A stretch of 64,000 nt of DNA from a bacterium (lineage in GTDB: Bacteria > Verrucomicrobiota > Verrucomicrobiia > Limisphaerales > J093), in the NCBI GenBank assembly GCA_021780105.1, contig JAJXZJ010000032.1, positions 3,615 to 67,614 of the forward strand. The letters run 5' to 3'. Below the pieces are notes generated by a model. The model was not told the origin of the DNA. It saw nothing but the letters and a program-made list of their open reading frames with translations, and ran no database searches. Of the stretch, positions 1 through 37,868 are shown piece by piece. A program made the translations under genes and the position numbers. Position 1 is the first letter of the stretch. Each line of letters opens with the position of its first letter.

Positions 1-2218
1 CAAAGAAATCCAGCGTTGAGTAATAATCCCAGTCGCCGAGCGGGCTGGTGTCGTAATTCCAGTGCGCCAGCACGCTGCGGGTGCCGGCGGGCGAGATCAG
101 CGTAATGCGGACATCGGAGCGGCTGGGATGCGTGATGTTGGCGTTGAGCTTGATGTGCTCGCACAGGAGCGTGTTCGTGACCACCAGCGGGAAGCGGACG
201 GCATTCAGCTTCAACTGCGCTTGCACGTTGGTCGCCGACTGGAGGTAGCTGTGCAGCGCGTCACCGGAATTCTGGTCAATGAACACCGTGGGGATTGGGT
301 AATACTGGATGTCCACGCCGTCCATGAAGATGCGCTCGTTGCTGTTCTTGTTGTCATAAATGACGGCGAACCGCGCGCCGGCGGCCACGGCGTAGCCGAT
401 TTTCTGCGCGAAATAATTCACGCCGCGCTGGATCAACGCCGCCTTGCCGGTGAGGTCCTGGGTGATCGGCGTGAGCGCCTGGCCCACGTCCACCAGTGGC
501 AGAACTTCCGTGGGGTTGTCCGGATGCAGTCCGTCGCTGGGGAACGCCGGGATGGATTGGATGTTCACCGGCACGTTGGTCCCGGTGATGAGCACGCGCA
601 AGCCATCGTCGGGGATCGTCACGCCGCCGGCGTTCGTGGCGGCGACGTTGTTGGTCACGGTGATGTCCACGGCGGGCGGACGATTGGACCACGCCCGCGC
701 CAGAAACACGGCCTGACCGGTGTCCGGCACGCCGAAGCCGACGTTGTGGCTCACACGGAAACCGGCGCCGTTGGTCTGAATGTCCGGGTCGGCGAGGTCA
801 AGATGGCGTGCGGAAAAAATCAGCAGTTGCTGCACGTCGCGATACGTGAGCTGCGGATTGGCGGACAGAATCAAGGCGCACAAGCCGGCGATCTGCGGCG
901 TCGAGCCGGAGGTGCCGTCAAAACCAGTGTCGCCGAAGCAGTAATCCGGGTGGTTGGACGTGTCGGAGTTGTAGCCCAAGGCGCCGATGCGATCGGTGGT
1001 GAACAGGCTCGGATAATTGGTGGTGCCGCCATCCGGGGTGTCCACCAGAAAGTCGCCGGTGAAGGCGGCCACCAGCACGTTCGCGCCCGGCGTGCTGTAG
1101 CTGGCGGCGCGGCCGGTGCTCCGCACGCCGGCGACGGCAATCTCCCGCGGATCCTGCGTGTAGCCGTCGTCGTTGCCGTTGCCGATGGCGGCGTTGCCAC
1201 CGCCGTCGTCAAGCCGGTAGTTGCCTGCGGCGCGGACGAGCACCACACCCTTGCCGCCGCGGCCTTGCTGCACGGCATTCTGGATGCCGGTGTTCTCCAA
1301 CTCCGGCAACGGGCTTTGCGCGCCGCCAACGCTGCCCCAACTGTGGTTCTCGACGCTGACGGCGTTTGGGTGGAACTCATACATCTCCATCAGTTGCAGT
1401 TCGTCCGCGATGTTGTCGGACGCGTCCCAAATGACCCAGCTCGCCAGTTGCGCCGCCGGGGCGACGCCGGAAACGCCCACGCCGTTGTTGCCGACGGCGG
1501 CGATCAGTCCCGCGACCGCCGTGCCGTGCATCTGCGACGTGGACGGGTGCGAGCCGTCGGGCTGGCTCGTGGTGAAGTTCCACTGGTTGGTGTTGGTGAG
1601 GTTGGCGGCAAGGTCAGGGTGCGTCATATCCATGCCATCATCGGCGTCAGCCACCACCACCCCTTCGCCGCGCGTCACCGGCCAGGCCGCGCGGACGTTC
1701 AGGTCGAAACCCACCGGGACAGCGGTGGTCGGATCGCGGTCCTCCAAGTGCCACTGGCCGCTGAAGAATGGGTCGTTCGGCGCCGGCGCATAGGCCCCCT
1801 GGCGCTGGATCGCGCGGCGCCGGACCGGATGGCTCACCGTGACGCCCGGTAATGTGGCCAGGCGTTGGGCCTCGCGCGCGGCAATCACGGCGTCCGGCGC
1901 CCGGAGCACGAACAGATTCGATGTGACGGTAAGTTCCAGCTTGAGCGGGCTGGTGGCGAGCAGGTCAGGCAGCGCCGCCGGATTTGTCAGCCGCAAGACC
2001 ACCTGACTGCCGAATTGAATCAGGTTCGTCGGTCCGTGTTCGCGGCGGGCGCGCAGCCAGGCCGGCCCGGCGGCCGTCGTCGGTTTCACGCTCGGCATCT
2101 CAAACACATACGCCGTCGGCTGCGGCAGACGGAATTCAAACCGGCTGGTGCCGGCGGCGTGCAAATTCATCGTGATGCCGCCCAGCAACAACCATCCGCA
2201 AATCCAGAGACGCTTCAT
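1..2218 (-). CDS. Secreted S8 (kexin/furin-like) serine protease with proprotein-convertase P domain; runs off the window start
   Basis: Not in the ORF track because it has no stop in the window. Manual minus-strand translation from ATG 2218: signal-like MKRLWICGWLLLGG, PNDPFFSGQWHL, VVVADADDG (Asp), HGTAVAGLIAA (His), DGTSGSTPQIAG (Ser), then P-domain-like HPSRSDVRITLISPAGTRSVL. Confidence 0.85.
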   Translation of the reverse strand, partial: MKRLWICGWLLLGGITMNLHAAGTSRFEFRLPQPTAYVFEMPSVKPTTAAGPAWLRARREHGPTNLIQFGSQVVLRLTNPAALPDLLATSPLKLELTVTSNLFVLRAPDAVIAAREAQRLATLPGVTVSHPVRRRAIQRQGAYAPAPNDPFFSGQWHLEDRDPTTAVPVGFDLNVRAAWPVTRGEGVVVADADDGMDMTHPDLAANLTNTNQWNFTTSQPDGSHPSTSQMHGTAVAGLIAAVGNNGVGVSGVAPAAQLASWVIWDASDNIADELQLMEMYEFHPNAVSVENHSWGSVGGAQSPLPELENTGIQNAVQQGRGGKGVVLVRAAGNYRLDDGGGNAAIGNGNDDGYTQDPREIAVAGVRSTGRAASYSTPGANVLVAAFTGDFLVDTPDGGTTNYPSLFTTDRIGALGYNSDTSNHPDYCFGDTGFDGTSGSTPQIAGLCALILSANPQLTYRDVQQLLIFSARHLDLADPDIQTNGAGFRVSHNVGFGVPDTGQAVFLARAWSNRPPAVDITVTNNVAATNAGGVTIPDDGLRVLITGTNVPVNIQSIPAFPSDGLHPDNPTEVLPLVDVGQALTPITQDLTGKAALIQRGVNYFAQKIGYAVAAGARFAVIYDNKNSNERIFMDGVDIQYYPIPTVFIDQNSGDALHSYLQSATNVQAQLKLNAVRFPLVVTNTLLCEHIKLNANITHPSRSDVRITLISPAGTRSVLAHWNYDTSPLGDWDYYSTLDFF

Positions 2219-2413
2219 GGGTAATATGACCAACCACCGACTTCCGAAGGTAGGCAACGTGCGCAACGCCACCCAGCGTCACCATTAGCCGCTCCGGACA
2301 CGACAATAAAAGCAGGTTCTGGGCCGGGTCGAGTCAAAAGCGTCGGTCGGGTCGGTCGGGCTTGCGCCGCCGGCGAGTTGCGTTTACACCTGCCGCGTGA
2401 AAGGTTCTTACTT

Positions 2414-3781
2414 GTGAAATTGTGGTTTCCCTTGCTCCTGGCCGCCTGGTGCGCGGCGGTTCACGCGGCCGATTTGCCTCCGCTTATCCTGCCCGCGGGC
2501 GTGGGCGTGAACATTCATTTCAACCGCGGTCACACCAGGGACCTCGACCGCATCGCCGCCGCGGGCTTCAAGTTCGTTCGCATGGACCTCGGCTGGGAAG
2601 GCATCGAGCGCACCCGCGGTCAATACGACTGGTCCGCGCCGGACGAGTTGGTGACCAACCTCACCAGCCGCGGGATGCGGGCAATCCTGATTCTGGATTA
2701 CTCCAATCCGCTTTATGAGCAGACCGTGACCGCGCGGAACCCCGTCCTTGGCGGCGAACAAAAGGACGTCGCCTCGCCGCAGCACCCGGAAAGCATCGCG
2801 GCGTTTGCGCGCTGGGCGGCCGCCGCGGCGACGCACTTCAAAGACCGCCGCGTCATTTGGGAAATCTGGAACGAACCCAACATCTTCTTTTGGAAACCAA
2901 AGCCGGACGTGGCGCAATACACCGCGCTGGCGCTGGCGACGTGCCAGGCCGTCCGCGCCGCCGACCCCGAGGCCACGATCATTGGTCCCGCTTCGTCCGA
3001 GTTCCCCTTGCCGTTTCTTGAGGCGTTTTGCGCGTCCGGCGTGCTGGCCCAGCTTGACGCCGTGAGCGTGCATCCGTATCGCGATTACCGCCAACCGCCG
3101 GAAACCGCCGCGGAGGATTACGCGAAGCTGCGCCTGTTGATCGAGCGTTATGCGCCCATGGGCAAGAAACAGATGCCGATCATCAGCGGCGAGTGGGGTT
3201 ACGCGACGCACACGAAAGGTGTGTCGCTCGAAACGCAGGCGGCGTTCATCGTCCGGCAGCAACTCGCCAACCTCCTCGCCAGCGTGCCGCTGTCCATCTG
3301 GTATGACTGGAAAAACGACGGCGACGATCCCTCCGAGCGCGAGCACAATTTCGGCACGGTCCGGCCGGACCTGACGCCCAAACCGGCCTACACGGCAATC
3401 AAAACCATGACGATCGAACTGGCCGGCTGCCGCATCGTCAGGCGGCTCAACACCGGCAACGGAAAGGATTTTGTTCTGCTGTTCGCCGACGCGCACGGCG
3501 GCCAGAAACTGACGGCTTGGACGCTTGGTGAGCCGCATGAGATTGCACTGCCGGCGAGCTTGAGGCGGCGTGCCGAGATCAAAGGTGTCACCGGTCAGGG
3601 CAGCAAGTTCGGGTTGGAACTGACCGGAGTGGCGAAGGGCAACACGCTTGCATCGGCGGCGGCCGCCGATCATGCCAGCGTCCGGTTTGACGCGGATCGG
3701 CTGTGGATCGGCGTTGGCCCGGCGCCGGTTTTCCTGAGCCTCGAAGGCGTGCGGTTGCGTCCGGCTCCGGCGGGAAAATGA
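2414..3781 (+). CDS. Secreted clan GH-A glycoside hydrolase (GH5/GH39-like)
   Basis: Signal peptide from GTG 2414; WEIWNEPN acid/base motif, VSVHPY, ISGEWGY nucleophile. Confidence 0.8.
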   Translation: MKLWFPLLLAAWCAAVHAADLPPLILPAGVGVNIHFNRGHTRDLDRIAAAGFKFVRMDLGWEGIERTRGQYDWSAPDELVTNLTSRGMRAILILDYSNPLYEQTVTARNPVLGGEQKDVASPQHPESIAAFARWAAAAATHFKDRRVIWEIWNEPNIFFWKPKPDVAQYTALALATCQAVRAADPEATIIGPASSEFPLPFLEAFCASGVLAQLDAVSVHPYRDYRQPPETAAEDYAKLRLLIERYAPMGKKQMPIISGEWGYATHTKGVSLETQAAFIVRQQLANLLASVPLSIWYDWKNDGDDPSEREHNFGTVRPDLTPKPAYTAIKTMTIELAGCRIVRRLNTGNGKDFVLLFADAHGGQKLTAWTLGEPHEIALPASLRRRAEIKGVTGQGSKFGLELTGVAKGNTLASAAAADHASVRFDADRLWIGVGPAPVFLSLEGVRLRPAPAGK

Positions 3782-3793
3782 CGGGCTCAGGCG

Positions 3794-4678
3794 ATGAAGG
3801 CGCTGTTCATTCACGCTCATTTTGACGATTACGAATTCACGGCGGCCGGCACGTTCGAGTTGTGGCGCCGGCAGCTTGGTCAGGAATTCCAGGGCAAGGT
3901 GATCGTCTGCACCGACGGCGCCGCGGGACACCATTTTCGAACTCGTGAGGAGACCGCGCGTCTCCGGCTGGTGGAGCAACTGAACTCGGTGCGTTTGGGC
4001 GGCTATGAATTTGAGCTGCTGTCGCTGCCGGACGGCCGCGTTTCGCGGGAAGTCGGCCTGCGTGTGACGCCGGATTTTCTCGCGGCGTTGTGGAAGGCCA
4101 TCCGGGAATTCGAGCCGGATTATTTGTTCTGCCCGCCCTTGCCGGCCGACCCGCTGGCCGGCGTCCATCCCGACCACCTCACGGTGGCACAGGCGGTGCG
4201 TGAAGTGGGTTACCTCATCAATGTGCCGCACACGTTCACGCCGGAATATCCGGCCGATGAGACGCAATCACGGCCGTGCAAGACGCCGGTGATCATCGCG
4301 GTCTATGACGGCTACATGTTTGGCGAAAATGCGTTCGATCTCGCCGTGGACGTGGAGCCGGCGTTCGACGTGATTGCCGATATGAGCTGGTGCCACCAGT
4401 CGCAGATCACGGAATGGTTGCCGTGGGTGGGGCGTCACCAGATGGATGTGCCGCGCGACCTGACCGACTGGCGCGCCACGCTGCGCCGACGGTTCGAGCG
4501 GAAAAGCCGCGAGGTCGGCCTGGCCTCGGCGCACGCGACGGAGTTGTTCACCGTTACCGCGTGGGGCGAGGTGCCGGCATTCGAGGAATTGTCGCGCGAC
4601 CTGCCGGGGTTGTGTGTGGACGCCGCGCGGCAGGAGCGACTGCGTGTGAAGCTGGCGCGCTGGCGCGGCGGCGAGTAA
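3794..4678 (+). CDS. PIG-L/LmbE family N-deacetylase
   Basis: HAHFDD, TDGAAG, HPDH and HQSQ motifs. Confidence 0.85.
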   Translation: MKALFIHAHFDDYEFTAAGTFELWRRQLGQEFQGKVIVCTDGAAGHHFRTREETARLRLVEQLNSVRLGGYEFELLSLPDGRVSREVGLRVTPDFLAALWKAIREFEPDYLFCPPLPADPLAGVHPDHLTVAQAVREVGYLINVPHTFTPEYPADETQSRPCKTPVIIAVYDGYMFGENAFDLAVDVEPAFDVIADMSWCHQSQITEWLPWVGRHQMDVPRDLTDWRATLRRRFERKSREVGLASAHATELFTVTAWGEVPAFEELSRDLPGLCVDAARQERLRVKLARWRGGE

Positions 4679-4863
4679 ACCGGACCTTTCAATTCTGTCC
4701 TCTGAATAGGGGACATGCAAAAAGAGACATTCGATTTGCATGGAGGGCATCAGCGTGATTCACTCCTCTCAACGCCTGTCCCCGCCTTGGTTCGTCTGCA
4801 TTGGGCCGGTGGGTAACCCGACAAGCGCCCGAAACGCAAGCAACCACGCTGATCCTGCCAACC

Positions 4864-6885
4864 ATGAAACGCTCTTTGTCCGCCGCGCTGGTCACCGGCC
4901 TGCTCTTTGCAGGTGCCAGCGTGTTTGGTGCTTCAACCTCCGCCAACAGACCAACTGCCAATAACGCCGTTGGGAGAACGGCGTCGCCGCAAAAAGCGGA
5001 TCCGGTCCTGGTGCGGCTTTACCGGAGTCAGACCGGTTCGCCGGCGCGGGTCGCACCTTCAACCGTCCACACCCAGATCATGCCATCTGTCCACAATGGC
5101 GTTCTGATGGTGAACGCCATTGCAGATTCAAGCGCACAGAAACTGGCCAGCGATCTCGCGGCGTTAGGCATGTCGAGGCCCGTGGTGGCCGGCCGCATGG
5201 TTTCCGGCCCGCTGCCGGTGGCGGCAATCCCCAAACTGCAAAACCTGAAAAGCCTCCGCTTCGCGCGACCGTGCTGGACGGCCACCCGGACCGGCTTGAT
5301 CACGAGCGGCGGCGACCTCGCAATGCAGTCCGCCACGGCACGCGTTGAATTTGCGGTGGACGGCACGGGAGTCAACGTGGGCGTGCTGTCAGACTCGTTC
5401 GACTCGCTTGGCGGCGCGGGTTTGGGCGAGCTGTATAATGATCTGCCTCTGTCCGTGAACGTCCTTGAGGACATTGCGGCGGAAAACGGTCCTGGAACGG
5501 ATGAAGGCAGAGCGATGGCGGAAATCATTCACGACGTCGCGCCGGGAGCGGGCATTGCTTTCAATACTGCTTTCAATGGCGAGGCGGACTTTGCCTTGGG
5601 CATCCTGAACCTGGCTGACCCGCTGCGCGGCAACTGCAAGGTGATCGTGGATGACGTCATTTACTTCGACGAACCCATGTTTGCCGATGGCATCCTTGCC
5701 CAGGCGGTGAATGCCGTCGCCGCCAGCGGCGCGGTTTATTTTTCCTCGGCCGGTAATGACGCGCGGCAGGGATGGGAGGAGCCGGGTGGTTACCGGGCGT
5801 CGGGCGTGTTGGACACGGATGTCAATTACGGCGGGCAGATGCATGAGTTTGTGGCCGGCGGGAATCACACGACGCTCTTGCCCGTAACCTTCGACCAGGG
5901 GCAGACGATCATCGTTTTCCAATGGGCGCAACCCTACGCGAGCACCGGCGCATCGAGTCCCGGCGCCAGTGGTGACCTGGACGTTTATCTCTGCGACCGT
6001 GACGGAAATTATTTGGTGGATGGCAAAGGCTTCCGGATCGGCAGCTACAGCAACAACCTTGGCGGTGATCCCACGGAAATCTTCGCTTACCAAGCGTCCG
6101 CCAACAACACTCAGCTCGCATTGCGCATCCAGTGGTTCAGCGGGACGGCTCCGGCGGCGATGATGAAGATCGTCTGGTCGGGCGCGATGAGAGTTGATGC
6201 TCCCTTCAATACCGACAGTGGCTCGCTGTTTGGCCATGCCAACGCCACGGGAGCGTCCGCCGTCGGCGCCGCCCGTTATTACCGAACGACCGTATATGGG
6301 ATCGCGCCGCCGTTGTTGGAGAGCTTCTCCTCTGCGGGACCGATGGGCATCTTCTTCAATCCGGATGGAACGCCAGTAAACGCGGATGGGACACCGGAGA
6401 TTCGCCTCAAACCTGAGTTTATCGCGCCCGATGGCGGGAACACCACCTTCTTTGCGGCGGGATTGGACCCGGAAGGCGATGGCTGGCCAAACTTCTTTGG
6501 CACGTCGGCAGCAGCACCCCACGCCGCGGCCGTGGCCGCGTTGATGTTGCAGCAGGCGGCATTGACGCCCACCACAGTCAAGACGGCTCTGGAAGCGTCG
6601 GCGATAGACATGGCGTCGGCCGGATTTGACTACGACACCGGCTATGGTTTGATCCAGGCTGATCGAGTGTTGGCCGCCGTTCTTCCGCCACCCATTCAGT
6701 CCGCCTTTGATTTGAACGTTGACGGCTGCGTGGATGCCAGTGACCTCGCAGAGCTTCTGGCCGCCATTCGCGCGGGTTCTTCCTTGTCGAAGTATGACGT
6801 GAACAACGACGGGTTTGTCACCATGGCGGACGCGCGCATTTTGACCCGGCACTTTACCAATCCGGGCGGCGCGCCGTGTCACTAA
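4864..6885 (+). CDS. Secreted S8/S53-like serine peptidase with C-terminal dockerin-like module
   Basis: Signal peptide MKRSLSAALVTGLLFAGASVFG; GVLSDS, DEGRAMAEIIHDVAPGA, SSAGN, FFGTSAAAPH; C-terminal paired Ca-binding repeats DLNVDGCVDASD / DVNNDGFVTMAD. Confidence 0.85.
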   Translation: MKRSLSAALVTGLLFAGASVFGASTSANRPTANNAVGRTASPQKADPVLVRLYRSQTGSPARVAPSTVHTQIMPSVHNGVLMVNAIADSSAQKLASDLAALGMSRPVVAGRMVSGPLPVAAIPKLQNLKSLRFARPCWTATRTGLITSGGDLAMQSATARVEFAVDGTGVNVGVLSDSFDSLGGAGLGELYNDLPLSVNVLEDIAAENGPGTDEGRAMAEIIHDVAPGAGIAFNTAFNGEADFALGILNLADPLRGNCKVIVDDVIYFDEPMFADGILAQAVNAVAASGAVYFSSAGNDARQGWEEPGGYRASGVLDTDVNYGGQMHEFVAGGNHTTLLPVTFDQGQTIIVFQWAQPYASTGASSPGASGDLDVYLCDRDGNYLVDGKGFRIGSYSNNLGGDPTEIFAYQASANNTQLALRIQWFSGTAPAAMMKIVWSGAMRVDAPFNTDSGSLFGHANATGASAVGAARYYRTTVYGIAPPLLESFSSAGPMGIFFNPDGTPVNADGTPEIRLKPEFIAPDGGNTTFFAAGLDPEGDGWPNFFGTSAAAPHAAAVAALMLQQAALTPTTVKTALEASAIDMASAGFDYDTGYGLIQADRVLAAVLPPPIQSAFDLNVDGCVDASDLAELLAAIRAGSSLSKYDVNNDGFVTMADARILTRHFTNPGGAPCH

Positions 6886-6938
6886 CACTACCAAACGGCA
6901 ACCAACCGATCCACCCAACCCAAACCAACGACTCTGAT

Positions 6939-7628
6939 ATGAATACCCAGTTAACCGCCACGACGATCGGCGCCGGCTGTTTCGCCTTCGCGATGAACGT
7001 TTCCGCCGACCTGATCGTCTCGGTGCTGCCGGACGCGCAAACGATTCAAGTGGGCGAGACCACCAGCATTGCACTGGTCATCTCCGGCCTGCCTACCACG
7101 CAAGTTCCGGTTCCTGCCGCGGTGACCGGCCTCGGCGCTTACAGCCTGACTTTGGGCTTCGATCCCAGTGTGATCTCCGCCACGGCGGTCACGTTCCTCC
7201 CGCCGCCGGAATCCAAGCTCGACCTGGGCGTATTCGGCAGCCTGGAGCATTCCGATCTGACCATGCCGGGCGCTGTGGAATTGGACGAGACTTCGTTGGA
7301 AGACACCGCTGCGCTCCGCCAAAGCCAGTATGTCAACGTGGATTCCACCACGTTGACCGCGAGCTTTACCCTGGCCTCCATTTCGTTCACCGGTTTGGCT
7401 GTGGGCAGCGCGCCGGTCTATTTTCTGGCGGGGGATCTGTCGGATGCCGCGGGGTGGCCGCTCACCGGCAACGTCTTTGGTCTCGGCGGGACGATTACGG
7501 TGGTGCCTGAGCCGGCAGCGTTTGCCGTCGTTGCCGGGCTGGGGTTGGTCGCGTTTGCCTGGGTGCGAAAGCTCGGCCGGCACCAGGCGCATCCGCCGAC
7601 AAAGGATTACTCCACCCGCACGCGGTAG
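6939..7628 (+). CDS. Cohesin-like domain PEP-CTERM protein
   Basis: Signal peptide; QTIQVGETTSIALVISG...GLGAYSLTLGFDPSVI...LASISFTG pattern typical of cohesin beta-sandwiches; C-terminal VPEPAAFAVVAGLGLVAFAWVRK. Confidence 0.75.
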   Translation: MNTQLTATTIGAGCFAFAMNVSADLIVSVLPDAQTIQVGETTSIALVISGLPTTQVPVPAAVTGLGAYSLTLGFDPSVISATAVTFLPPPESKLDLGVFGSLEHSDLTMPGAVELDETSLEDTAALRQSQYVNVDSTTLTASFTLASISFTGLAVGSAPVYFLAGDLSDAAGWPLTGNVFGLGGTITVVPEPAAFAVVAGLGLVAFAWVRKLGRHQAHPPTKDYSTRTR

Positions 7629-8440
7629 AAGCGCGGCGTGGCGGTCGCGTTCGTGTCGAGCAGTTGCATCTCGCCGCCGGTGCCGTTGGTGCTGACCAGC
7701 GTCTGCCACGGTGCGACCAGATTCGTGGTGAAGTCCACGTTATTGACGAAATTGCTCAGGCTGTTCCAGGAGAGCAGCCGCGTGCCGTCGGCGTTGAGAT
7801 GCGCGGTCACTTGCGGCCACGCTGGTAGTGAGAAGTCGGTGTAAACCAGGTCGTTGAGTGTCGGAGCGCTGCTGAGCACCGGCAGCGTTGGCAGCGCGGT
7901 TCCCAGGTTGACATACCAGATGCCGTTGCTGGTGGACGTGTCATTGAACCGGTTCAGCAGATTCGTTCCCAGCAGGGTCGTGCCGAAGACCGTGAATCCG
8001 CCGTCCACGCCGTCGAGAAACGCGTTGTTCGTCAGGTTAATGAACCACTCTGAATTCGCCGAATTGGTCTGCCCGCCGACGCGCGCCATGGCGATCGTGC
8101 CGTAGGTGTTGCTGAACGTCCGGCCGACGTTGAACTCGTTGGTGATGTTTCCGAAAGTCACCACGGTGCTGAAGTCCGCGTTCGTCGTGTTGCGGTTGGT
8201 GATCCAATAGCCGCCTCCCTGGATGACGAAGCCCGGCTCCCAGCGCTGCACCATCGTGTCGCGGAACAGCCCGTTCGTGATGTAACGCTTGAAATTGCCC
8301 ACCGTCGCCGGCTTGTCGGCGTCGTAAAGCTGAAGCAGCAGGTCGCCGAGCGGCGTGTGGATTTGCACGAGGCTGTCGGCGCGGATCAAGGGTGGCGCCG
8401 ACATGATGATTGCAAACAAAACGTAGAAGAAACGTTTCAC
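7607..8440 (-). CDS. Secreted cyclophilin-type peptidyl-prolyl isomerase with extra C-terminal domain
   Basis: PATVGNF, RWEPGFVIQGGG, GTIAMAR, SANSEWFINL, FTVFG motifs; signal peptide; C-terminus ends RFYRVRVE. Confidence 0.85.
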   Translation of the reverse strand: MKRFFYVLFAIIMSAPPLIRADSLVQIHTPLGDLLLQLYDADKPATVGNFKRYITNGLFRDTMVQRWEPGFVIQGGGYWITNRNTTNADFSTVVTFGNITNEFNVGRTFSNTYGTIAMARVGGQTNSANSEWFINLTNNAFLDGVDGGFTVFGTTLLGTNLLNRFNDTSTSNGIWYVNLGTALPTLPVLSSAPTLNDLVYTDFSLPAWPQVTAHLNADGTRLLSWNSLSNFVNNVDFTTNLVAPWQTLVSTNGTGGEMQLLDTNATATPRFYRVRVE

Positions 8441-9288
8441 GCGGCGAAGCGTGCGGGAGTGGCGCGCTTTTTTGAAGCGGAATTTCGTCGCGGCAGGTGA
8501 CGTTCCAGTTGCGGCCGCAAGCGGCCGTTGTTGGCGTTAATCTCGAAGACGTGCTCGCCCGTCACCTGGCGGCACCAGAATTCGCCGCCGGCGCACTCGA
8601 CGATCAAGCCGCCGGCCGCGATGTCCCACAACCGCAGGCCCGGTTCGAGATACGCGTCAAACCGCCCGCTCGCCACGTAGGTCAGCGCCAGCGCCGCCGC
8701 GCCCATGATCCGCACCTTGCGGACGCGATGGGCGAGGGCGCCCAGCGCCGGCAGCATTCCCGCCAGCACCGCCGCTTCCTTCCCGAAGCCCAGCGAAATC
8801 ACCGCCTCGCCAAGCTGGTTGCGGTTGCTGACGCGAATCACCCGACCGTTCAACCGCGCCGGCTGCCCGCGGATGGCTGTCCATAACTCGTCGCAAAACG
8901 GATCGTAAACGACGCCCACCATCGTGGTGAACGACGCGTCATCGTCGCTTGCGGCGTGCCGCAGTTGGAGCGCAATGGACACGCAGGCGTGCGGAATGCC
9001 GTAGGTGAAATTCACCGTGCCATCAATCGGGTCCACCACCCAGCGCAGCAGCGAATCCGGGTCGCCGGCCACACCTTCCTCGCCGAGCACCGCCGTCGCG
9101 GGAAACGCCGCCAGCAGCCGGCGCGCGATCAGTTTCTGGCAGCGCACGTCCAGTTCCAGCTTGATGTCGTGCCGCGTGGTCGAATTGATGGTTTTGGGCG
9201 ACCGCAAATTCCGCCGCATCAATTGCCCGGCGGCCCGCGCCGCGGCAACCACCACGGTCAACGCGCGTTTTTGTTCGGTGAGTTTCAT
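8437..9288 (-). CDS. suhB: Inositol monophosphatase family protein (SuhB-like)
   Basis: GEEG, WVVDPIDGTVNF, GAAAL, WDIAAGGLIVECAGG motifs. Confidence 0.85.
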   Translation of the reverse strand: MKLTEQKRALTVVVAAARAAGQLMRRNLRSPKTINSTTRHDIKLELDVRCQKLIARRLLAAFPATAVLGEEGVAGDPDSLLRWVVDPIDGTVNFTYGIPHACVSIALQLRHAASDDDASFTTMVGVVYDPFCDELWTAIRGQPARLNGRVIRVSNRNQLGEAVISLGFGKEAAVLAGMLPALGALAHRVRKVRIMGAAALALTYVASGRFDAYLEPGLRLWDIAAGGLIVECAGGEFWCRQVTGEHVFEINANNGRLRPQLERHLPRRNSASKKRATPARFAA

Positions 9289-9436
9289 GATTCAGAATCC
9301 GGAACCGGCGCCGGGAAGTTGAACCGGCTGCCCGCCGCCGTCCAGATTTTCCGCGGCGGGCACGCGGCGTGGTTGACACAATCCGCCGGCGGCGCAAGCC
9401 TGCCATGGGGTTTCGGTGAACTGTCCACGGCATATC

Positions 9437-11731
9437 ATGCAACCGCCCACGCCTCCATCGGCACGCGTCGCGTCGTTGCTGCGACGGCGTTGGCGGCGAT
9501 TGCTGTTGCTCGCGCTGACGCCGCTGTTTCTTTTGGCGGGAGGCTGGCTGGCGTTGCCGCTGGTGCCGTTGCCGCCGGGTTTGTTCTCACCTCCCACCGC
9601 TTCTCCGGAGTTCGTGGACCGCCACGGCGCGCCGCTGCGCGTGTTGCCGCAGGGCGGCGCCTTTGCCCGGCGGGTCGCGTTCCACGACATTCCTGTCGCA
9701 CTCGTGGACGCCACGCTTGCCGCCGAGGACCGCCGGTTCTGGCGCCATCCCGGCGTGGACTGGCTGGCAACGACGCGCGCTGCGTGGAACTGGCTGCGCC
9801 ACGGCCGCGTAATCTCCGGCGGCTCCACCATCACGCAACAACTCATCAAGCTCGCCCGGCCGCGACTGCGGACGCTGCGGACAAAAGTGATCGAGGCCGC
9901 GCAGGCGCTCCGGCTGGAGCAAGTCTGGGACAAGCAGCGCATTTTCACCGAATATTTGAACCGCGTGGACTACGGCAACCTTTGCGTCGGTTGCGCGGAG
10001 GCGGCGCAATTTTATTTCGGCAAACCGCCTGCCGACCTCAGCGTTGCGGAAGCTGCGTTCCTCGCGGGGCTGCCACAGGCGCCGTCGCGACTGAACCCGC
10101 GCCGGCATTTTGCGCGGGCGCAAAAGCGGCAGCAGTGGATTCTCGGCCGGATGCGTGCGAACGGCTGGCTCACCGCGCGCGAGCTTGATCGCGCCTGCGC
10201 CGAACCGCTCCGGCTCCAGCCGCCACGGCGGGTGTTCCAAGCGCCGCATTTTGTGGACCTCATCCTGAGCCAGCGCCGCGGACTGTCGCCGTGCCGGATC
10301 GCGACCATGCTGGATCTGGAATTGAATCGTGTGGCCGAGACGATCCTGCGCGAGCAGCTCGGCCGGTTGCGCGGCGAACACGCCCAAGACGGCGCCGTCG
10401 TCATCCTCGACAACCGCACCGGCGGCGTGCTCGCGCTGGTGGGATCGGAGGATTATTTCGCGCCGGCCGCCGGCCAGGTGAACGGCGCGTGGGCACCGCG
10501 TTCCGCCGGTTCGACCCTGAAGCCGTTCACTTACCTGCTGGCCTTCGCCCTGGGCGCCACGCCCGCCAGCATCGTCGCCGACGTTCCGGCCGAATTCCCG
10601 ACGCCGACGGGCATTTTCCGGCCGGTCAATTACGACCGCCGCACCTATGGTCCGATGCGCTACCGAATGGCGCTGGCGAATTCGCTCAACATTTCAGCGG
10701 TGAAAGTGCTCGCGTCGGTGGGTGGCGCACCGGCATTGCAGCGGTTGCTCCGCGAGTGCGGTCTGACGACGCTGGACAAACCGGCCGACTTCTACGGCCT
10801 CGGCCTGACCATCGGCAACGCGGACGTGCGCCTGCTCGAACTCGTCAACGCTTACGCGGTACTCGCCCGGCTCGGCGTGTTCCAGCCTTACCATTTGCTC
10901 GCGACGGAGGCGTCCACTGCGGCGCCGGAACGGCGCATGGCCGACGCCGCGGACGCGTGGTTGATCGCCGCCGTGCTCAGCGACAATGCCGCGCGGACGC
11001 TGGCTTTTGGCAGCGAATCGTTCCTTCGCTTCGACTTTCCCGTCGCGTGCAAAACCGGCACCAGCTCGGATTTTCGCGACAACTGGGCCGTCGGCTACAC
11101 GCCCGAATTCACCGTCGGCGTGTGGGTGGGGAATTTCGACGGCACACCAATGGCGCGCGTATCCGGCGTCAGCGGCGCGGCACCGATCTTGCACGAACTT
11201 TTCGAGCACCTGCACCGGCGCTACGGCACGTCGTGGTTTGTCCGCCCGGCCAACATTGTTGAAGCGGCGATTCAGCCCATCACCGGTCATCGCTTGACCG
11301 AACAGTGGCCCGGCACCGTCACGGAAAAATTCCGCGCCGGCACGCTGCCGCCTTTGGAAACCGCCGCCGATTATGACGCCGAAGGCCGCGTGCGGCTGCC
11401 CGCTGAATACCGCGATTGGCTGGCCTCCGCCGACAACTGGCTCACCGGCCGGGCGGTGGTGGACACGGCGTCGGCCACGCCGCTGCGTCTGATTTCGCCG
11501 CTGCCGGGCACGACGTTTTTTCTCGATCCCGACCTGCCGGACGCGGGCCGCTGGCTCACGTTGAGGGCTGAAGGCGGAACGAACCTGGTTTGGACCAGCG
11601 ACTCGCTCGCGATCAAACGCGCTGCCGGCGGTGTCTGCGCCCGGATGACCGAAGGCCGACACACGTTACGCGTCCACGATCCGGCCACCGGCGAACAGGC
11701 GGCGACGTGGATTCTCGTGAAACGGCGCTGA
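9437..11731 (+). CDS. pbpC: Penicillin-binding protein 1C
   Basis: Transglycosylase EDRRFWRHPGVD and GGSTITQQL; transpeptidase STLK, SLN, KTGT; C-terminal BiPBP_C-like extension. Confidence 0.85.
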   Translation: MQPPTPPSARVASLLRRRWRRLLLLALTPLFLLAGGWLALPLVPLPPGLFSPPTASPEFVDRHGAPLRVLPQGGAFARRVAFHDIPVALVDATLAAEDRRFWRHPGVDWLATTRAAWNWLRHGRVISGGSTITQQLIKLARPRLRTLRTKVIEAAQALRLEQVWDKQRIFTEYLNRVDYGNLCVGCAEAAQFYFGKPPADLSVAEAAFLAGLPQAPSRLNPRRHFARAQKRQQWILGRMRANGWLTARELDRACAEPLRLQPPRRVFQAPHFVDLILSQRRGLSPCRIATMLDLELNRVAETILREQLGRLRGEHAQDGAVVILDNRTGGVLALVGSEDYFAPAAGQVNGAWAPRSAGSTLKPFTYLLAFALGATPASIVADVPAEFPTPTGIFRPVNYDRRTYGPMRYRMALANSLNISAVKVLASVGGAPALQRLLRECGLTTLDKPADFYGLGLTIGNADVRLLELVNAYAVLARLGVFQPYHLLATEASTAAPERRMADAADAWLIAAVLSDNAARTLAFGSESFLRFDFPVACKTGTSSDFRDNWAVGYTPEFTVGVWVGNFDGTPMARVSGVSGAAPILHELFEHLHRRYGTSWFVRPANIVEAAIQPITGHRLTEQWPGTVTEKFRAGTLPPLETAADYDAEGRVRLPAEYRDWLASADNWLTGRAVVDTASATPLRLISPLPGTTFFLDPDLPDAGRWLTLRAEGGTNLVWTSDSLAIKRAAGGVCARMTEGRHTLRVHDPATGEQAATWILVKRR

Positions 11732-11766
11732 GCCGCGCCGTTTCGGCGCGTTGGCGAACGTTTGGT

Positions 11767-12570
11767 TCAGAGCGGCCGGACCCAAATGTCCCGGAAACGC
11801 ACGGGACATTCGTGTCCGCCGAGAACCAGCGGCCCGCGGTTGATCTTGTGCTTGTATTCCGGTAGAATACGATGCCCGGTTTCACCGTGGATTTCCTGGT
11901 TCAATTGCACGAGCAAACCGTTGTGGAAAATGGTCACGCGCGCCGGGCTGACTAATTTATCGCCGTCGAACACCGGCGCGGTGAACACGATGTCGTAGGT
12001 CTGCCACTGGCCCGGCAGACGCGTGGCGTTGACCAGCGGCGGCGTCTGGCCGTAGATCGCCGCGGCCTCGCCGTCCGGGTAAATCTTCACGTTGAACGAG
12101 TCGAACACCTGGATTTCGTAAAGACCCATCAGGAACACACCGTTGTTGCCCTGGTTATACCACGGGCCCTGGAAATGCGCCGGCGCCATCCATTCGAGGT
12201 GAATCTGGCAGTTGCCGAAGCTTTGCTTGCTCGTGAAGTTGCCGTTGCCCGCCACGATGCAGCCGTCGTCCACCTTGTAGTCCGAGGGTTCCCATGCCGA
12301 CAGGTCCTTGCCGTCGAAGAGCACGATGGCGTCCGCCGGCGCCGGCGCGGGCGGGCCGGCGGGGCCGGGGTCCACGCGTTTCGGCGCGGGGCGGTCGGGG
12401 TCGTGGACGAGCCACTGGCACCACGGCAGTTTGGGCGTGTCCTTGTAGCCGAAGACGCCGGAGCCGTCCTTGGCATAGACGAGATCGGCGGCGTGGGCGA
12501 GGGCGAGGGTGGTCAACGCGGCGCCGAGCACGGCGAGCGCAGTTCGCGGGAGGAGTAGCGACGTGTTCAT
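11767..12570 (-). CDS. DUF1080 (3-keto-disaccharide hydrolase-like) secreted protein
   Basis: Real start is MNTSLLLPR at 12570; LFDGKDLSAW, GNNGVFL, YEIQVFDS, WQTYDIVF, PVRFRDIWVRPL. Confidence 0.85.
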   Translation of the reverse strand: MNTSLLLPRTALAVLGAALTTLALAHAADLVYAKDGSGVFGYKDTPKLPWCQWLVHDPDRPAPKRVDPGPAGPPAPAPADAIVLFDGKDLSAWEPSDYKVDDGCIVAGNGNFTSKQSFGNCQIHLEWMAPAHFQGPWYNQGNNGVFLMGLYEIQVFDSFNVKIYPDGEAAAIYGQTPPLVNATRLPGQWQTYDIVFTAPVFDGDKLVSPARVTIFHNGLLVQLNQEIHGETGHRILPEYKHKINRGPLVLGGHECPVRFRDIWVRPL

Positions 12571-12729
12571 GGTTTGTTCGCGGCGATCATGGCGGATTGG
12601 AGAACTCGTGCAAGCAGTTTGCACCGATCCGGCCCCGGTGTGCCGGCCCTGGCCGGGTGGTCGATGACGCGAAGTTGCCCGGCGAAAATTTCGTTCGTCG
12701 CGCTCCGGCGTTGCGCTATCGTTCCGACG

Positions 12730-13731
12730 ATGAAGCAATGGTTTCGACCGGGCGGGTTTCTGCTGGCGATGTTGGTTTGTGGGGCAGGGGGCATCCGTGG
12801 GTTCGCCGCGCCGACAAATCTGCCGCCGGCACGGATTTTGTTCCTCGGCGACAGCATCACCTACAGCGGGCAATACGTGGAGTTCTTCGAGACGTTCGTC
12901 CGGCTGCAATTTCCGGCGTGGCGCGGTGAAATCCTCAATCTCGGCCTGCCCAGCGAAACGGTGTCCGGCCTGTCGGAGCCGGGGCACGCGGGCGGGGCGT
13001 TTCCGCGGCCGGACCTGCACGAGCGGCTGGACCGCGTGCTCGCCCAGACGAAACCGGACGTGGTCATCGCCTGCTACGGCATGAACGACGGCATCTACCT
13101 GCCGTTCGACGCGGGGCGATTTGAGCGGTTCCAGGACGGCATTCGCTGGCTGCGGGAGAAGGTCGCCGCCGCCGGCGCGCCGATCATTTTGCTCACGCCG
13201 CCCACGTTCGATCCCACGGCCGGGAATCCCAACCCACCGCCCGCGTTCAATTACAACGACGTGCTGGACCACTGCGCGGCATGGTTGCTCGCGCAGCGCG
13301 ACCACGGCTGGACCGTGCTCGACGTCCACGGACCGATGAACCGTTTTCTCGCGGAGCGCCGCCGGCAGGACCCGGCTTATCATCTCGCCGGCGACGGCGT
13401 GCATCCGAATGACACCGGCCACTGGCTCATGGTGCGACCGTTGCTGCGGCACTTCGGCGCGCCGGCGGAGCTTGCGGAGACGGAATCCGTGGCGCCGATG
13501 CTGGCGCATTACCCGCACGCTGCCGAGGTGCTGAAGCTGGTCCAGGAGCGCCAGCGGATGTTGAAGGACGCCTGGCTCACGGCCACCGGCCACAAACGGC
13601 CCGGCATGGCGAAGGGCCTGCCGCTGGCCGAAGCGCAGCCACGCGCCACGGAACTGGACCGGCAAATCAACGCGTTGACCGCGACGCAGAGAACTGAATC
13701 GCCGGCGGGGCTGCCTCAGCCGAACCGGTAA
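12730..13731 (+). CDS. SGNH/GDSL hydrolase
   Basis: FLGDSIT, GMND, DGVHP blocks; signal-like N-terminus. Confidence 0.85.
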   Translation: MKQWFRPGGFLLAMLVCGAGGIRGFAAPTNLPPARILFLGDSITYSGQYVEFFETFVRLQFPAWRGEILNLGLPSETVSGLSEPGHAGGAFPRPDLHERLDRVLAQTKPDVVIACYGMNDGIYLPFDAGRFERFQDGIRWLREKVAAAGAPIILLTPPTFDPTAGNPNPPPAFNYNDVLDHCAAWLLAQRDHGWTVLDVHGPMNRFLAERRRQDPAYHLAGDGVHPNDTGHWLMVRPLLRHFGAPAELAETESVAPMLAHYPHAAEVLKLVQERQRMLKDAWLTATGHKRPGMAKGLPLAEAQPRATELDRQINALTATQRTESPAGLPQPNR

Positions 13732-18224: not shown

Positions 18225-18926
18225 TTACGCGCGCAGCCGCCGGACGAGCGTGTATCCCGCCAATCCGAGTCCGAAGACGCCCGCATAGGTCGTAGGTTCC
18301 GGCACCGAGAAACCTTGATCAATCAGAGTGGCGGTGACCACGGTATTGGGAGAGAGTCCCGTCAGATTGATGTTTTTCTCGACCGTGAGCCATTGCTGAT
18401 TGGGAAACACCAACTCGTCGAGCGCTTCGCCGGGAGGATCCTGAATATCGTGCGAGGCGATGCCGTTCAACACCAACTTGCCTACGCTGCTTTGACCGAC
18501 CACCAAGCCACCCACGCCGTCGGCGTGAACGACTTCATCAATCGCGGCGAAACCATCACCGAACTGAACACCCGCGACCATGGCACTGTAGAGGTCTTCA
18601 ATGATGGGTGCGTTAGCGGTGACTTTGTAGGTGAGACCGATGTCAATTCCGTTCATGCCCACCACGGAGATGGGACCTTGAAGTTGAATGCCAAACGTCG
18701 GATGCACACCATCCGGCCTGCCAAAGTCCATTGTGGATACCGTGATGAGGCTGGCCGTCGGCGCCCCTGGCGATGGCGTCCAAACGAAATCGCTGAACGT
18801 GAGACCATCAATCGTCAGGGTGTTTCCACCGGGCCCCAACGTGTCTAACAACATGCTTCCAGCCTGGCTTGTCACCATGCTGGTGGCTAGGCTGGAAACG
18901 ACTGCTGCAATGAATAACTTTCGCAT
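18225..18926 (-). CDS. PEP-CTERM surface protein, copy 1
   Basis: Signal peptide MRKLFIAAVVSSLATSMVTSQA; C-terminal VPEPTTYAGVFGLGLAGYTLVRRLRA. Confidence 0.9.
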   Translation of the reverse strand: MRKLFIAAVVSSLATSMVTSQAGSMLLDTLGPGGNTLTIDGLTFSDFVWTPSPGAPTASLITVSTMDFGRPDGVHPTFGIQLQGPISVVGMNGIDIGLTYKVTANAPIIEDLYSAMVAGVQFGDGFAAIDEVVHADGVGGLVVGQSSVGKLVLNGIASHDIQDPPGEALDELVFPNQQWLTVEKNINLTGLSPNTVVTATLIDQGFSVPEPTTYAGVFGLGLAGYTLVRRLRA

Positions 18927-19245: not shown

Positions 19246-19938
19246 TTACGCGCGGACGCGCCGTAAGAATGTGTATCCGAGCAATCCGAGTCCGAAGAGG
19301 CCCGCGTAAGTCGCCGGTTCGGGCACCGAGAAGCCTTGGTCAACGATTGTCACCGTGGCCACGGTAGCCGGGTCCAGCCCCGTCAAGTTGATGTTCTTTT
19401 CAACCGTGAGCACTTGCTGGCTGGGAAAGATCAAATTATCAAGTGCCTCCGGCGGAGGATCTTGAGGATCATTCCACAGGACACCACCGAGGACCGACTT
19501 GGCAATGCTGCTCTGGCCAACCACAGCCCCACCCAAGCCACCCGCATGGACTACTTCATCAATTGCCGCGAAACCATCGCCAAACTGAACTCCAGCCACC
19601 ATCGAATTGTAAATGTCTTCGATGATTGCGCTGCTCGCGGTAACTTTGTATATGAGGCCGATGTCAATCGCGTTCACACCCGCGATCGACATTGGTCCTT
19701 GGAGTTGAATTCCATAGGTTGGACGACCATCAATGATGCCGAAGTCCATCGTGGATACGTTAATCAGACTGGCCGCGGGTGCCCCTGGAGAAGGCGTCCA
19801 GACGAAGTCGCTGAACGTGAGTCCGTCAATACTCAGGGTTCCCATACCTGGTCCCAGAGTGTCCAACGTTGCCGCCTGACTCGGCGCGATGCTTGCGACC
19901 AAGCCGGCGGCCGCTAATGTAATAAGAAGTTTCCGCAT
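19246..19938 (-). CDS. PEP-CTERM surface protein, copy 2 (tandem paralog)
   Basis: Start MRKLLITL at 19938; long blocks identical to copy 1; VPEPATYAGLFGLGLLGYTFLRRVRA. Confidence 0.9.
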   Translation of the reverse strand: MRKLLITLAAAGLVASIAPSQAATLDTLGPGMGTLSIDGLTFSDFVWTPSPGAPAASLINVSTMDFGIIDGRPTYGIQLQGPMSIAGVNAIDIGLIYKVTASSAIIEDIYNSMVAGVQFGDGFAAIDEVVHAGGLGGAVVGQSSIAKSVLGGVLWNDPQDPPPEALDNLIFPSQQVLTVEKNINLTGLDPATVATVTIVDQGFSVPEPATYAGLFGLGLLGYTFLRRVRA

Positions 19939-22831: not shown

Positions 22832-22877
22832 AATTTGATTGAGCCGCGCCGGGAGGGTGGTGTCTGATGAACGCATT

Positions 22878-23858
22878 ATGGATGGCTCCTCAGTCTCTGT
22901 GTCCACCGCCGGGCGAAGCGGTTGGGATCAGTTTCGCGAGGAATTCGGCGGCGTCTGGCGCCAGTTGCCCAACAAGGGGGTGTTTCTGGGTCTGCTGGCG
23001 GCGTGGCTCCTGCTTTTTCAGTTCGTGGGAAACTCGACGTTTGGCTACCTCGACACACCGTCGCTGCTGACCTGGCTGTATCGGACCTACACGGCACCCA
23101 ACTCCCAGGATTCTCATGGTTTGCTGGTGCCATTTGTGGTTTTGGCGTTGTTTTGGTGGAAGCGCAAACAGTTGCTGGCCAAGGTGGGAGACCTCTGGAT
23201 GGCGGGCCTGGCGCTGCTGGCTGGCGCCACGGTGTTGCATATCGTGGGCTATTTGATTCAGCAACCGCGGGTCTCGGCGGTGGCGCTGCTGGTCGGGATT
23301 TTTGCGCTGATGGCGACGGCCTGGGGTTGGCGGCTGGCCACGGCCAGTCTCTTTCCCTTCGCGCTCCTGGCGTTTTGCATTCCGATCGGCACCATATCCG
23401 ACCCGATTACCGTGCCGCTGCGGCGCATCTCAACGGACATAGCGGTGGCCGTGGTGCGTCACGGGCTGAGTATTCAGGTGCTGCAAAACGGCACGCAAAT
23501 CCTCGATCCGAAAGGGAACTATAGTTATGAGGTTGTGGCCGCGTGCAGTGGCATCCGGAGCCTGGTGACGCTGCTGGCGCTTACGACGATTTATGGATTC
23601 ACCACGTTTCGGACCGGCTGGAAGCGGGCGTTGATGGTCGTTTTGGCCATGCCGCTGGCGGTGGCGGGCAACGTGGTGCGGCTGGTGGGAATCATCCTGG
23701 CGGCGGAGGCTTTTGGCCAGCGCGCCGGCGAGGTGGTGCATGAATGGTTTGGGTTTCTGACGTTTGCCATGGCCTTGCTGCTGTTGTTTGCCTTGGGACA
23801 TTGGTTGCGGGATTCAGAAGAGGTGCCGCCAGCGGAAGTGAAACGGGAGGCCGCATGA
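22878..23858 (+). CDS. xrt: Exosortase (EpsH family)
   Basis: Multi-TM; SHG, VVAACSGIRSL (catalytic Cys), NVVR (Arg), VHEWFG (His). Confidence 0.92.
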   Translation: MDGSSVSVSTAGRSGWDQFREEFGGVWRQLPNKGVFLGLLAAWLLLFQFVGNSTFGYLDTPSLLTWLYRTYTAPNSQDSHGLLVPFVVLALFWWKRKQLLAKVGDLWMAGLALLAGATVLHIVGYLIQQPRVSAVALLVGIFALMATAWGWRLATASLFPFALLAFCIPIGTISDPITVPLRRISTDIAVAVVRHGLSIQVLQNGTQILDPKGNYSYEVVAACSGIRSLVTLLALTTIYGFTTFRTGWKRALMVVLAMPLAVAGNVVRLVGIILAAEAFGQRAGEVVHEWFGFLTFAMALLLLFALGHWLRDSEEVPPAEVKREAA

Positions 23859-24616: not shown

Positions 24617-24693
24617 ATCTCCGGCGTTGCGAGTTGACGGACGATTTGTTTGAATTCCCTCCAGATTAGGTTGGAATTACTGCCAGTCACAAG

Positions 24694-26091: not shown

Positions 26092-26153
26092 GTCGAATCG
26101 AAACTTCGGCATCCGGCGGAAAGCATTATGCTGACAAACCCGACGCTCATGTC

Positions 26154-27182: not shown

Positions 27183-27364
27183 ACAACCGACATTGACGAC
27201 TTGTGCATTTGAGGAACACAACGCAGGACGAAAATCGCGGAGAAACATTTTTCTGTTTGACCGCTCGATTTATTTCCAGTAACCACCATCGAACTTTCTC
27301 GATTTTGGCCCGGTTCTGGCTATATCGAAAGGCGTGAACTTTGCTGTAAACTCGAGAAGAACGC

Positions 27365-29248: not shown

Positions 29249-29252
29249 TGAT

Positions 29253-30353: not shown

Positions 30354-30356
30354 CCC

Positions 30357-31166: not shown

Positions 31167-31173
31167 CGATTTT

Positions 31174-33942: not shown

Positions 33943-34080
33943 GGGAATGACGATACGACGGTTGTGATCCGAGTGGTTTCCGGCCGGCAAGCAAGACAAA
34001 ACAAACCATTTGATATGAAACGATTAGCGTTCTTTGGAGTCCTCGTAGTGGTCTTAGGTCTGGCGGGATCCGCGTTCGCC
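33601..34080 (+). other. In-frame insertion cassette splitting the secretin (S74 domain + stop + leader + signal peptide)
   Basis: 480 bp; removing it joins ...TTTGGAV to QVVNQAANT... in the same reading frame (exact boundary uncertain by 1-2 codons). Confidence 0.75.
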
Positions 34081-37865: not shown

Positions 37866-37868
37866 CCT

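Follow-up and report, generated by a model that had tools for sequence, protein, structure and literature searches.

A dockerin-ended protease gene followed by a cohesin–PEP-CTERM gene: a probable two-gene docking cassette in a member of the Verrucomicrobiota

The window considered here is a stretch of 64,000 nucleotides (positions 3,615 to 67,614 of contig JAJXZJ010000032.1 in GenBank assembly GCA_021780105.1) from a double-membraned (diderm) soil or water bacterium of the Verrucomicrobiota. It carries two neighbouring genes: gene A, which encodes a secreted S8-type peptidase ending in a dockerin (P0001), and gene B, which encodes a protein with a single cohesin domain and a PEP-CTERM tail (P0002). 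The pair probably forms a two-gene docking cassette, in which the exosortase-marked, single-cohesin protein holds the dockerin-tagged protease near the cell. The original prediction, read from the letters of the window, had listed a two-repeat dockerin, a neighbouring gene for a cohesin-like protein with a PEP-CTERM anchor, and an exosortase, and all of these elements are present where it had placed them. The TAA of gene A occupies 6883–6885 and the ATG of gene B lies at 6939, leaving the anticipated gap of 53 nt between two genes on the same strand (Table 1). The start of gene B is supported by its relatives, which align from the same methionine. A scan of the 53-nt spacer found no hairpin or terminator-like site, and we infer from the sequence that genes A and B would be co-transcribed across it.

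The identity of the gene B domain comes from its family. An exhaustive HMMER search with P0002 gave, at E ≤ 1e-3, 569 cluster representatives; almost all are about 200 residues long and match P0002 from end to end. The family alignment (A1) consists of P0002 and 99 of the 113 best matches; 14 short, long or partial sequences were left out, and ranks below P0115 were unused. The Pfam Cohesin model (PF00963) matches 45 of the 100 members at E ≤ 0.01 (best 1.8e-7), and the A1 profile finds the cohesin chains 3l8q_A (E 6.4e-5) and 2jh2_A of NagJ (E 0.012) in the PDB. The AlphaFold2 model of P0002 built with A1 (predicted local distance difference test, pLDDT, 87; predicted template modelling score, pTM, 0.77) is a nine-strand sandwich followed by a C-terminal helix. 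Foldseek returned 98 PDB matches to this model at E ≤ 0.001 (best E 3.4e-9), and the rows listed down to rank 50 are all cohesins. VIA-align, which is independent of Foldseek and covered 48,161 chains, places cohesins in its top 20 rows (Z 17.3–11.8, root-mean-square deviation 2.1–3.5, 122–147 residues aligned), led by 6kgc_A (Z 17.3, deviation 2.1 over 139 aligned residues); the first non-cohesin has a Z of 11.6. Because the family's Pfam matches, the match of its profile to the PDB and the two independent structure searches agree, the modelled domain is assigned a cohesin fold, and the cohesin-like domain read from the letters is borne out by the same four lines of evidence.

A dockerin loop is a 12-residue EF-hand-like calcium loop with D or N at positions 1, 3, 5 and 12, followed by a helix. 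Both loops at the end of P0001, DLNVDGCVDASD and DVNNDGFVTMAD, are canonical, with D or N at all four of these positions. The Dockerin_1 model (PF00404) matches P0001 with 35.5 bits against a cut-off of 22.9, and the same position of gene A scores 39.6 bits in a scan of the whole genome, in agreement with the two-repeat dockerin end (6706–6885) that had been described. A census of the assembly, which is 4.55 Mb long and 93.8% complete, found two dockerin matches by Pfam, one at the end of the protease and one at the end of a giant protein with MBG repeats. The genome has a single cohesin of the gene B family. With two dockerins in 4.55 Mb, one of them directly before the sole family cohesin, the adjacency is unlikely to have arisen by chance.

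The dockerins that precede cohesin genes can be compared in an alignment of 11 sequences (A5), made up of that of P0001 (window part 6679–6882) and 10 others. They align cleanly, and D11, D22, D40 and D51 are invariant in all 11. Conserved cysteines are a further feature of the dockerins adjoining cohesin–PEP-CTERM genes (the window part and loci L005–L016). The protease-type dockerin of the Verrucomicrobiota has DGC in loop 1 and a C-terminal PGGAPC, and most of the other A5 dockerins have a C-x(4)-C motif (CTxxRC) past the last helix. Judging from these patterns, the cysteines may form disulfide clasps that mark subtypes.

The two domains were also predicted together, as the original prediction had proposed, from the cohesin (residues 22–192) with A1, the 68-residue dockerin with A5, and two calcium ions. 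The predicted complex passes the mark, with an interaction prediction score from aligned errors (ipSAE) of 0.85 in three of three runs against 0.00 for the best of three controls. Among solved complexes 116 of 157 reach this mark, and among mismatched pairs 2 of 215 do; because custom alignments were supplied and a calcium ligand was added, these counts calibrate the present result only roughly. The partner pLDDT is 89 or higher, and 98% or more of the contacts agree between runs. On the cohesin side, the predicted interface comprises residues 66–69, 99–106, 114–123 and 166–174, which are strands 3, 5, 6 and 8 of the model; on the dockerin side it comprises the first helix and the second loop and helix. 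The canonical cohesin face for dockerin consists of strands 8-3-6-5, and the predicted interface matches the canonical cohesin–dockerin arrangement.

The N-terminus of the gene B product resembles a signal peptide, and its tail, VPEPAAFAVVAGLGLVAFAWVRKLGR, has a visible P-E-P motif, a hydrophobic helix and a basic cluster. The PEP-CTERM anchor claimed for this protein is recognizable both in the VPEP, helix and basic residues of the tail and in the relatives, 53 of the 100 A1 members matching the Pfam PEP-CTERM model (PF07589) at E ≤ 0.01. P190 of P0002 is nearly invariant in A1, and 47 of the 100 members match, via their tails, the NCBIfam model of the flocculation-associated PEP-CTERM protein PepA. 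The exosortase that had been placed at 22878 corresponds to an open reading frame (ORF) with a strong Exosortase_EpsH match (Table 1). The whole assembly has three PF09721 exosortase matches (168.8, 146.8 and 74.7 bits), including that of the window, and exosortase matches were found in nine of the ten other pair-bearing genomes searched.

The adjacency of the two genes, on which the original prediction had staked its reading, is conserved in the genome's own family, in other phyla and in metagenomes. Among 41 genomes, the present one (G000) included, strong cohesin matches were found in the relatives G007, G021 and G024, and in all three the gene immediately before the cohesin, on its strand, gives a Dockerin_1 match. 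The proteins so encoded include two orthologues of the protease (47% and 52% identity) and, in G024, a He_PIG repeat protein that is only 27% identical to it and still dockerin-ended. Over 31 family genomes the A5 profile gives 55–108 bits in G000, G007, G021, G024 and G450, and less than 35 bits in all others. In G450 a cohesin lies directly after each of two strong dockerins. Co-occurrence was scored in the 30 of these genomes that were searched with both A1 and A5 (G451 had no A1 search), taking 55–108 bits as the strong dockerin subtype and more than 100 bits as a strong cohesin. Both strong elements are present, adjacent and on the same strand in five genomes, and neither is present in the other 25. 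The five pair-bearing genomes represent five genera, and the pair is absent from the other members of these, the same-genus G001 included.

The genes flanking the pair differ in all four of the loci examined. In the window GH5-like and PIG-L genes stand at one end of the pair and a cyclophilin gene at the other. The corresponding neighbours are FtsA/FtsZ and SucD in L006, NamZ in L007, and in L005 a multihaem cytochrome with NusA at one end and a histidine kinase at the other. Because these flanks differ among loci, the dockerin and cohesin genes behave as a cassette.

Loci outside the family were found by scanning genome and metagenome contigs with a nine-row subset of the alignment (A4) sharing one motif, a search that samples only the motif-bearing part of the family. 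The genome contigs gave eight loci, seven with room upstream and an eighth with 78 nt only. In all seven testable loci, from Acidobacteriota (three), Pseudomonadota (three) and Verrucomicrobiota (one), the directly upstream gene ends in two DxDxDG loops. Dockerin_1 matches 6 of 10 upstream proteins (those of the seven loci and L005–L007) at E ≤ 0.01, and 2 of them above its cut-off; since only these two pass, the cohesin-adjacent dockerins are a divergent subtype. Their cargo varies from S8 peptidase to He_PIG, Big_9/cadherin/PKD, DUF11, PKD/RHS and Big_2 modules. What is conserved is the dockerin and the cohesin–PEP-CTERM gene; the protease is not. Such changing cargo is expected of a docking module.

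The metagenome contigs gave 30 loci, which were scored in six frames with a hidden Markov model built from A5. Of the 24 loci that have at least 250 nt of upstream sequence, 16 carry a dockerin immediately before the cohesin and on its strand, as do two loci with shorter flanks. Three loci have a same-strand dockerin downstream, and the six-frame scan found none on the opposite strand. The pairing is frequent, and it is neither obligatory nor universal. In a phylum-wide sample the cohesin of this family was found in 2 of 401 genomes, a weak census in which only 8 candidates were scored per genome.

Taken together, these observations point to the following arrangement. Both proteins would be exported by Sec, and the PEP-CTERM tail would mark the cohesin protein for one of the genome's three exosortases. 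Once processed, the cohesin protein would be held at the cell envelope or in an exopolysaccharide matrix, and its final location could be the outer surface, the matrix or the periplasm. The calcium-binding dockerin of P0001 would then plug into the strand 8-3-6-5 face of the cohesin in a calcium-dependent manner, and the protease would thereby be kept close to the cell and prevented from diffusing off. The cassette would be generic, in that the same cohesin–PEP-CTERM gene follows other dockerin-tagged proteins elsewhere. The name given in the original prediction, a 'minimal exosortase-anchored scaffoldin', stands as far as the cohesin fold and the conserved adjacency are concerned. However, 'scaffoldin' overstates a protein with a single cohesin, for which 'anchor' fits better.

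Several observations weigh against this arrangement. The direct check of P0002 that had been proposed, with the Cohesin model (PF00963), gave no match at E ≤ 1; a whole-genome Pfam Cohesin scan likewise found no match, and a single-sequence search of the PDB with P0002 gave nothing useful. The complex passing the mark may reflect its likeness to the many solved cohesin–dockerin complexes, an effect of memory in the predictor. Three of the 16 nearly invariant cohesin columns fall in the 23-residue interface against about 2.2 expected, which is no enrichment; we regard this result as neutral because interfaces that determine specificity are expected to vary. The PEP-CTERM model (PF07589) gives P0002 20.5 bits and falls short of its cut-off of 20.7 by 0.2 bits, and a genome search with TIGR02595 (E ≤ 0.01) gave 19 PEP-CTERM matches that do not include the P0002 tail. 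The nearest exosortase lies 15 kb from the gene pair, outside the cassette. The family genomes are related and are not independent samples, and many are incomplete metagenome-assembled genomes. Among the 24 testable metagenome loci, six have no dockerin in the locus and two more have one only downstream; of the six, two have another PEP-CTERM protein upstream and one a LuxR-type regulator. What becomes of PEP-CTERM proteins once cleaved is not settled, and the window revealed no route by which either protein would cross the outer membrane.

The last two points bear on the main rival, which keeps cohesin–dockerin binding and changes its place. The complex would stay in the periplasm or at the inner membrane by an uncleaved PEP-CTERM helix, or be released into the matrix after cleavage, with no surface display. 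All of the binding evidence applies equally to such a placement, the lack of an identified export route suits it, the exosortase has a Bac_transf sugar transferase and an ABC-exporter-like gene as neighbours in a polysaccharide-type cluster, and almost half of the A1 members match the floc PepA model. No result here speaks against it, although the large adhesin-like cargo found elsewhere (Big_9, cadherin, PKD) is easier to explain outside the cell than in the periplasm. We consider this placement possible and on the whole unlikely.

Two further readings dispense with a lasting bond between the proteins. The dockerin could be a calcium-stabilised end module or bind some other ligand, such as a polysaccharide, and the cohesin-like protein could be an independent matrix protein, the adjacency then reflecting co-regulation or co-transfer. 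This would account for the upstream dockerin missing at 8 of the 24 testable metagenome loci, for the many dockerins of related genomes that have no family cohesin nearby, and for interface columns that are not specially conserved. It sits poorly with a specific dockerin subtype that in the family is confined to the genomes with the cohesin and adjoins it in all five of them, with a pairing that persists across three phyla while cargo and flanks change, and with the gap between the predicted complex and its controls. Mere neighbourhood is for these reasons improbable. The cohesin-like protein could also be an export or maturation partner (a piggy-back carrier, a transient chaperone or an inhibitor) that forms no lasting anchor, as might suit the dockerin-first, cohesin-second order, strict in most loci, and cargo with no known secretion route. 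The loci carry unrelated cargo, non-enzymes among it, which makes an inhibitor role unlikely; solved cohesin–dockerin pairs are stable assembly modules, and no export machinery is conserved beside the pair. There is very little chance that this last reading is correct. For the docking cassette, finally, we lean slightly towards a broader view as well, in which diderms of several phyla share a mobile plug-and-socket system, an exosortase-sorted cohesin anchoring interchangeable dockerin-tagged cargo, and some lineages have expanded to multi-cohesin proteins (G450).

The protease itself is, from its sequence, a divergent S8-type peptidase. The Peptidase_S8 model (PF00082) matches P0001 with 45.3 bits against a cut-off of 21.8, spanning profile positions 132–288 only. 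FGTSAAAPH corresponds to the GTSxAxPH serine motif, and this region aligns to the solved subtilases 1r6v_A and 8ehe_A. In 36 aligned family members D177, D213-E214, N298, H327, H458 and the motif serine S548 are invariant. Between D177 and N298 lie the invariant D213-E214 and the nearly invariant H223, which are candidates for the general base, and the enzyme is probably active. At what we take to be the position of the subtilase HGTH motif, the family has the invariant D213-E214-G. H223 stands nine residues past it, and the invariant H327 and H458 stand elsewhere. A profile comparison of this family with the classical S8 protein of the window aligned the serine region only. The family is very large, with at least 1,700 proteins at E ≤ 1e-10 among 8,000 candidates scored. 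Among 120 listed relatives (P0001 counted), seven end in a dockerin and one (P0174) directly in a PEP-CTERM tail, and the remaining listed C-termini have TSP3-like, He_PIG, DUF11, RTX-type or FG-GAP modules, or nothing. These two kinds of ending, dockerin and PEP-CTERM, fit docking as an alternative to direct anchoring. Elsewhere in the window (35685–46264) there are three large co-directional ORFs (726, 498 and 1052 residues) without a Pfam match at E ≤ 1e-5, and after them the classical S8 subtilase (1226 residues, 177 bits), which has a Flg_new_2 domain.

Table 1. Coordinates of the gene pair, its domains, the nearest exosortase and features of two other loci. Positions are those of the window unless a locus is named.
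Feature	Position	Strand	Basis
Gene A (P0001, 673 residues): secreted S8-type peptidase with C-terminal dockerin	4864..6885	+	Pfam
Probable Sec signal peptide of gene A, MKRSLSAALVTGLLFAGASVFGA	4864..4932	+	Translation by eye: basic N-terminus, hydrophobic core, small residues
Dockerin, residues 615–664: two calcium-binding loops, each followed by a helix	6706..6855	+	Pfam PF00404
Spacer, 53 nt, A/C-rich	6886..6938	+	Sequence; hairpin scan
Gene B (P0002, 229 residues): signal peptide, single cohesin domain and PEP-CTERM tail	6939..7628	+	
Cohesin-fold domain, residues 22–192	7002..7514	+	AlphaFold2 model and fold searches
PEP-CTERM sorting signal, residues 189–211: VPEP, hydrophobic helix, basic residues	7503..7571	+	Pfam PF07589, relatives
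Exosortase (EpsH family), presumed processing enzyme	22839..23858	+	Pfam PF09721 Exosortase_EpsH, 167.5 bits
1907-residue protein with five MBG_2 repeats, ending in Dockerin_1 (28.9 bits)	L017 (G000:C12:62000-78000) 7845-13568	-	
P0153, 231-residue PEP-CTERM protein, after the MBG_2/dockerin gene	L017 6940-7635	-	
435-residue PEP-CTERM protein, after P0153	L017 5575-6882	-	
Split ORFs of L049	L049 2021-2500, 2504-2827 and 2745-3185	+	

The second dockerin of the genome (L017) is 33% identical to that of P0001 and lacks its cysteine and PGGAPC tail. The PEP-CTERM protein that follows it, P0153, has only its tail in common with the cohesin family. A word-index search for relatives of P0153 found none, and folded alone it gave an unusable model (pLDDT 39.8); its atlas neighbours are PEP-CTERM hypothetical proteins and jelly-roll-like domains.

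Three loci in relatives differ from the simple pair. In L048 (G450:C35) a 146-residue dockerin-ended protein (4923–5363, minus strand) is followed by a secreted protein of 1005 residues (1839–4856, minus strand), which has two tandem cohesin modules and no PEP-CTERM tail. From its sequence it looks like a small multi-cohesin, scaffoldin-like protein in the Verrucomicrobiota. In L049 (G450:C38) the cohesin–PEP-CTERM gene that follows a He_PIG/dockerin protein is divided between two frames by a frameshift or an assembly error, and the cargo gene upstream is split too. In L008 (G024:C24) a second, weak cohesin-family match (43 bits; 7989–8714, minus strand) is a 241-residue PEP-CTERM protein after an ORF of 1204 residues, and neither Pfam nor A5 genome scans found a dockerin near it.

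The exosortase of the window stands among genes (20912–34596) that could form an envelope or polysaccharide export cluster, to judge by their domains. These include the ABC-exporter-like gene (20912–22831), the Bac_transf sugar transferase (24694–26091), a PilM-like ATPase-fold protein (27365–29248), a 993-residue protein with tetratricopeptide repeats and Peptidase_S74 (30961–33942) and a short secretin-domain ORF (33964–34596). Two PEP-CTERM matches lie nearby at 18234–18305 and 19252–19326, both on the minus strand.

The closest known parallels are OlpA and OlpC of Clostridium thermocellum, which have an S-layer homology (SLH) anchor, and ScaE of Ruminococcus flavefaciens, which has a sortase LPXTG signal. 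All three come from Gram-positive cellulosome producers, are small, combine one cohesin with a C-terminal envelope anchor and keep dockerin-bearing proteins at the cell, and their cohesin structures are among the fold matches of P0002 (3ul4_A, Z 14.5; 4dh2_C, Z 14.5; 2zf9_A, Z 12.1), at a sequence identity of 7–15%. In contrast, the tail of gene B is a predicted PEP-CTERM/exosortase signal of a diderm and not an SLH or LPXTG anchor, the partner comes from the neighbouring gene, the cargo here is a protease and elsewhere consists of adhesin-like repeat proteins, with no glycoside hydrolases, and the genome has no multi-cohesin scaffoldin. The hallmarks of a cellulosome (cargo of glycoside hydrolases, a scaffoldin with several cohesins, anchoring by SLH or sortase) are not found here. 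The comparison with the cellulosome anchoring module, of which the original prediction had made the pair a diderm analogue, holds to the extent that the pair is predicted to work like one; no cellulosome is present.

Use of cohesin and dockerin outside cellulose degradation is also found in the NagJ/NagH 'toxin complex' of Clostridium perfringens and in the cohesin of Archaeoglobus fulgidus. The NagJ cohesin is matched here by profile (2jh2_A, given above) and by fold (2vo8_A and 2w1n_A, Z 15.7), and that of A. fulgidus by fold (2xdh_A, Z 15.7). Those modules differ in lying within large enzymes or in an archaeon, and in having no exosortase-type sorting tail. We know of no conserved two-gene cassette, plug then socket, described for either of them. 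Known PEP-CTERM proteins are mostly of unknown function. The N-terminal signal peptide and C-terminal PEP–helix–basic tail of P0002 resemble those of the PEP-CTERM/exosortase sorting system (Haft and colleagues; Zoogloea PepA, NF033554), which is represented in this genome by the three exosortases and 19 PEP-CTERM matches.

A full-text search of the literature, which covered few subscription journals, found no paper giving a PEP-CTERM protein a cohesin domain or a dockerin partner, and nothing joining dockerin, cohesin and PEP-CTERM, dockerin and PEP-CTERM, or PEP-CTERM and 'cohesin domain'. Exosortase and dockerin or cohesin were mentioned together only in PMC5244752, which in the parts consulted handles the topics separately and in archaea. 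The same article quotes Peer et al. (2009, FEMS Microbiol Lett) to the effect that cohesins and dockerins are widespread outside cellulosome producers, with unknown function. The main text of a 2024 genomic survey of cellulosome-displaying bacteria (PMC11557425) contains neither 'exosortase' nor 'Gram-negative'. That the gene pair recurs in other phyla with different cargo suggests a means of tethering secreted proteins that has not been described before.

The conserved cassette links two open questions, the function of cohesins and dockerins outside cellulosomes and the role and fate of PEP-CTERM proteins, and it turns them into a specific hypothesis, open to testing with a pair of small recombinant domains. 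One of the carriers, at L011, appears to be a named Methylocaldum strain, which suggests that a culturable host may exist. The cassette also explains many annotations as 'hypothetical protein', the relative P0007 being annotated only so, and it supplies a natural module for display in engineered diderms. If the docking cassette is real, it would be a means by which Gram-negative bacteria attach secreted enzymes and adhesins, without covalent bonds, to the cell or the biofilm matrix. PEP-CTERM proteins would then have a first defined molecular role, and cohesin–dockerin assembly would extend from the cellulosomes of Gram-positive bacteria to the Gram-negative envelope or matrix.

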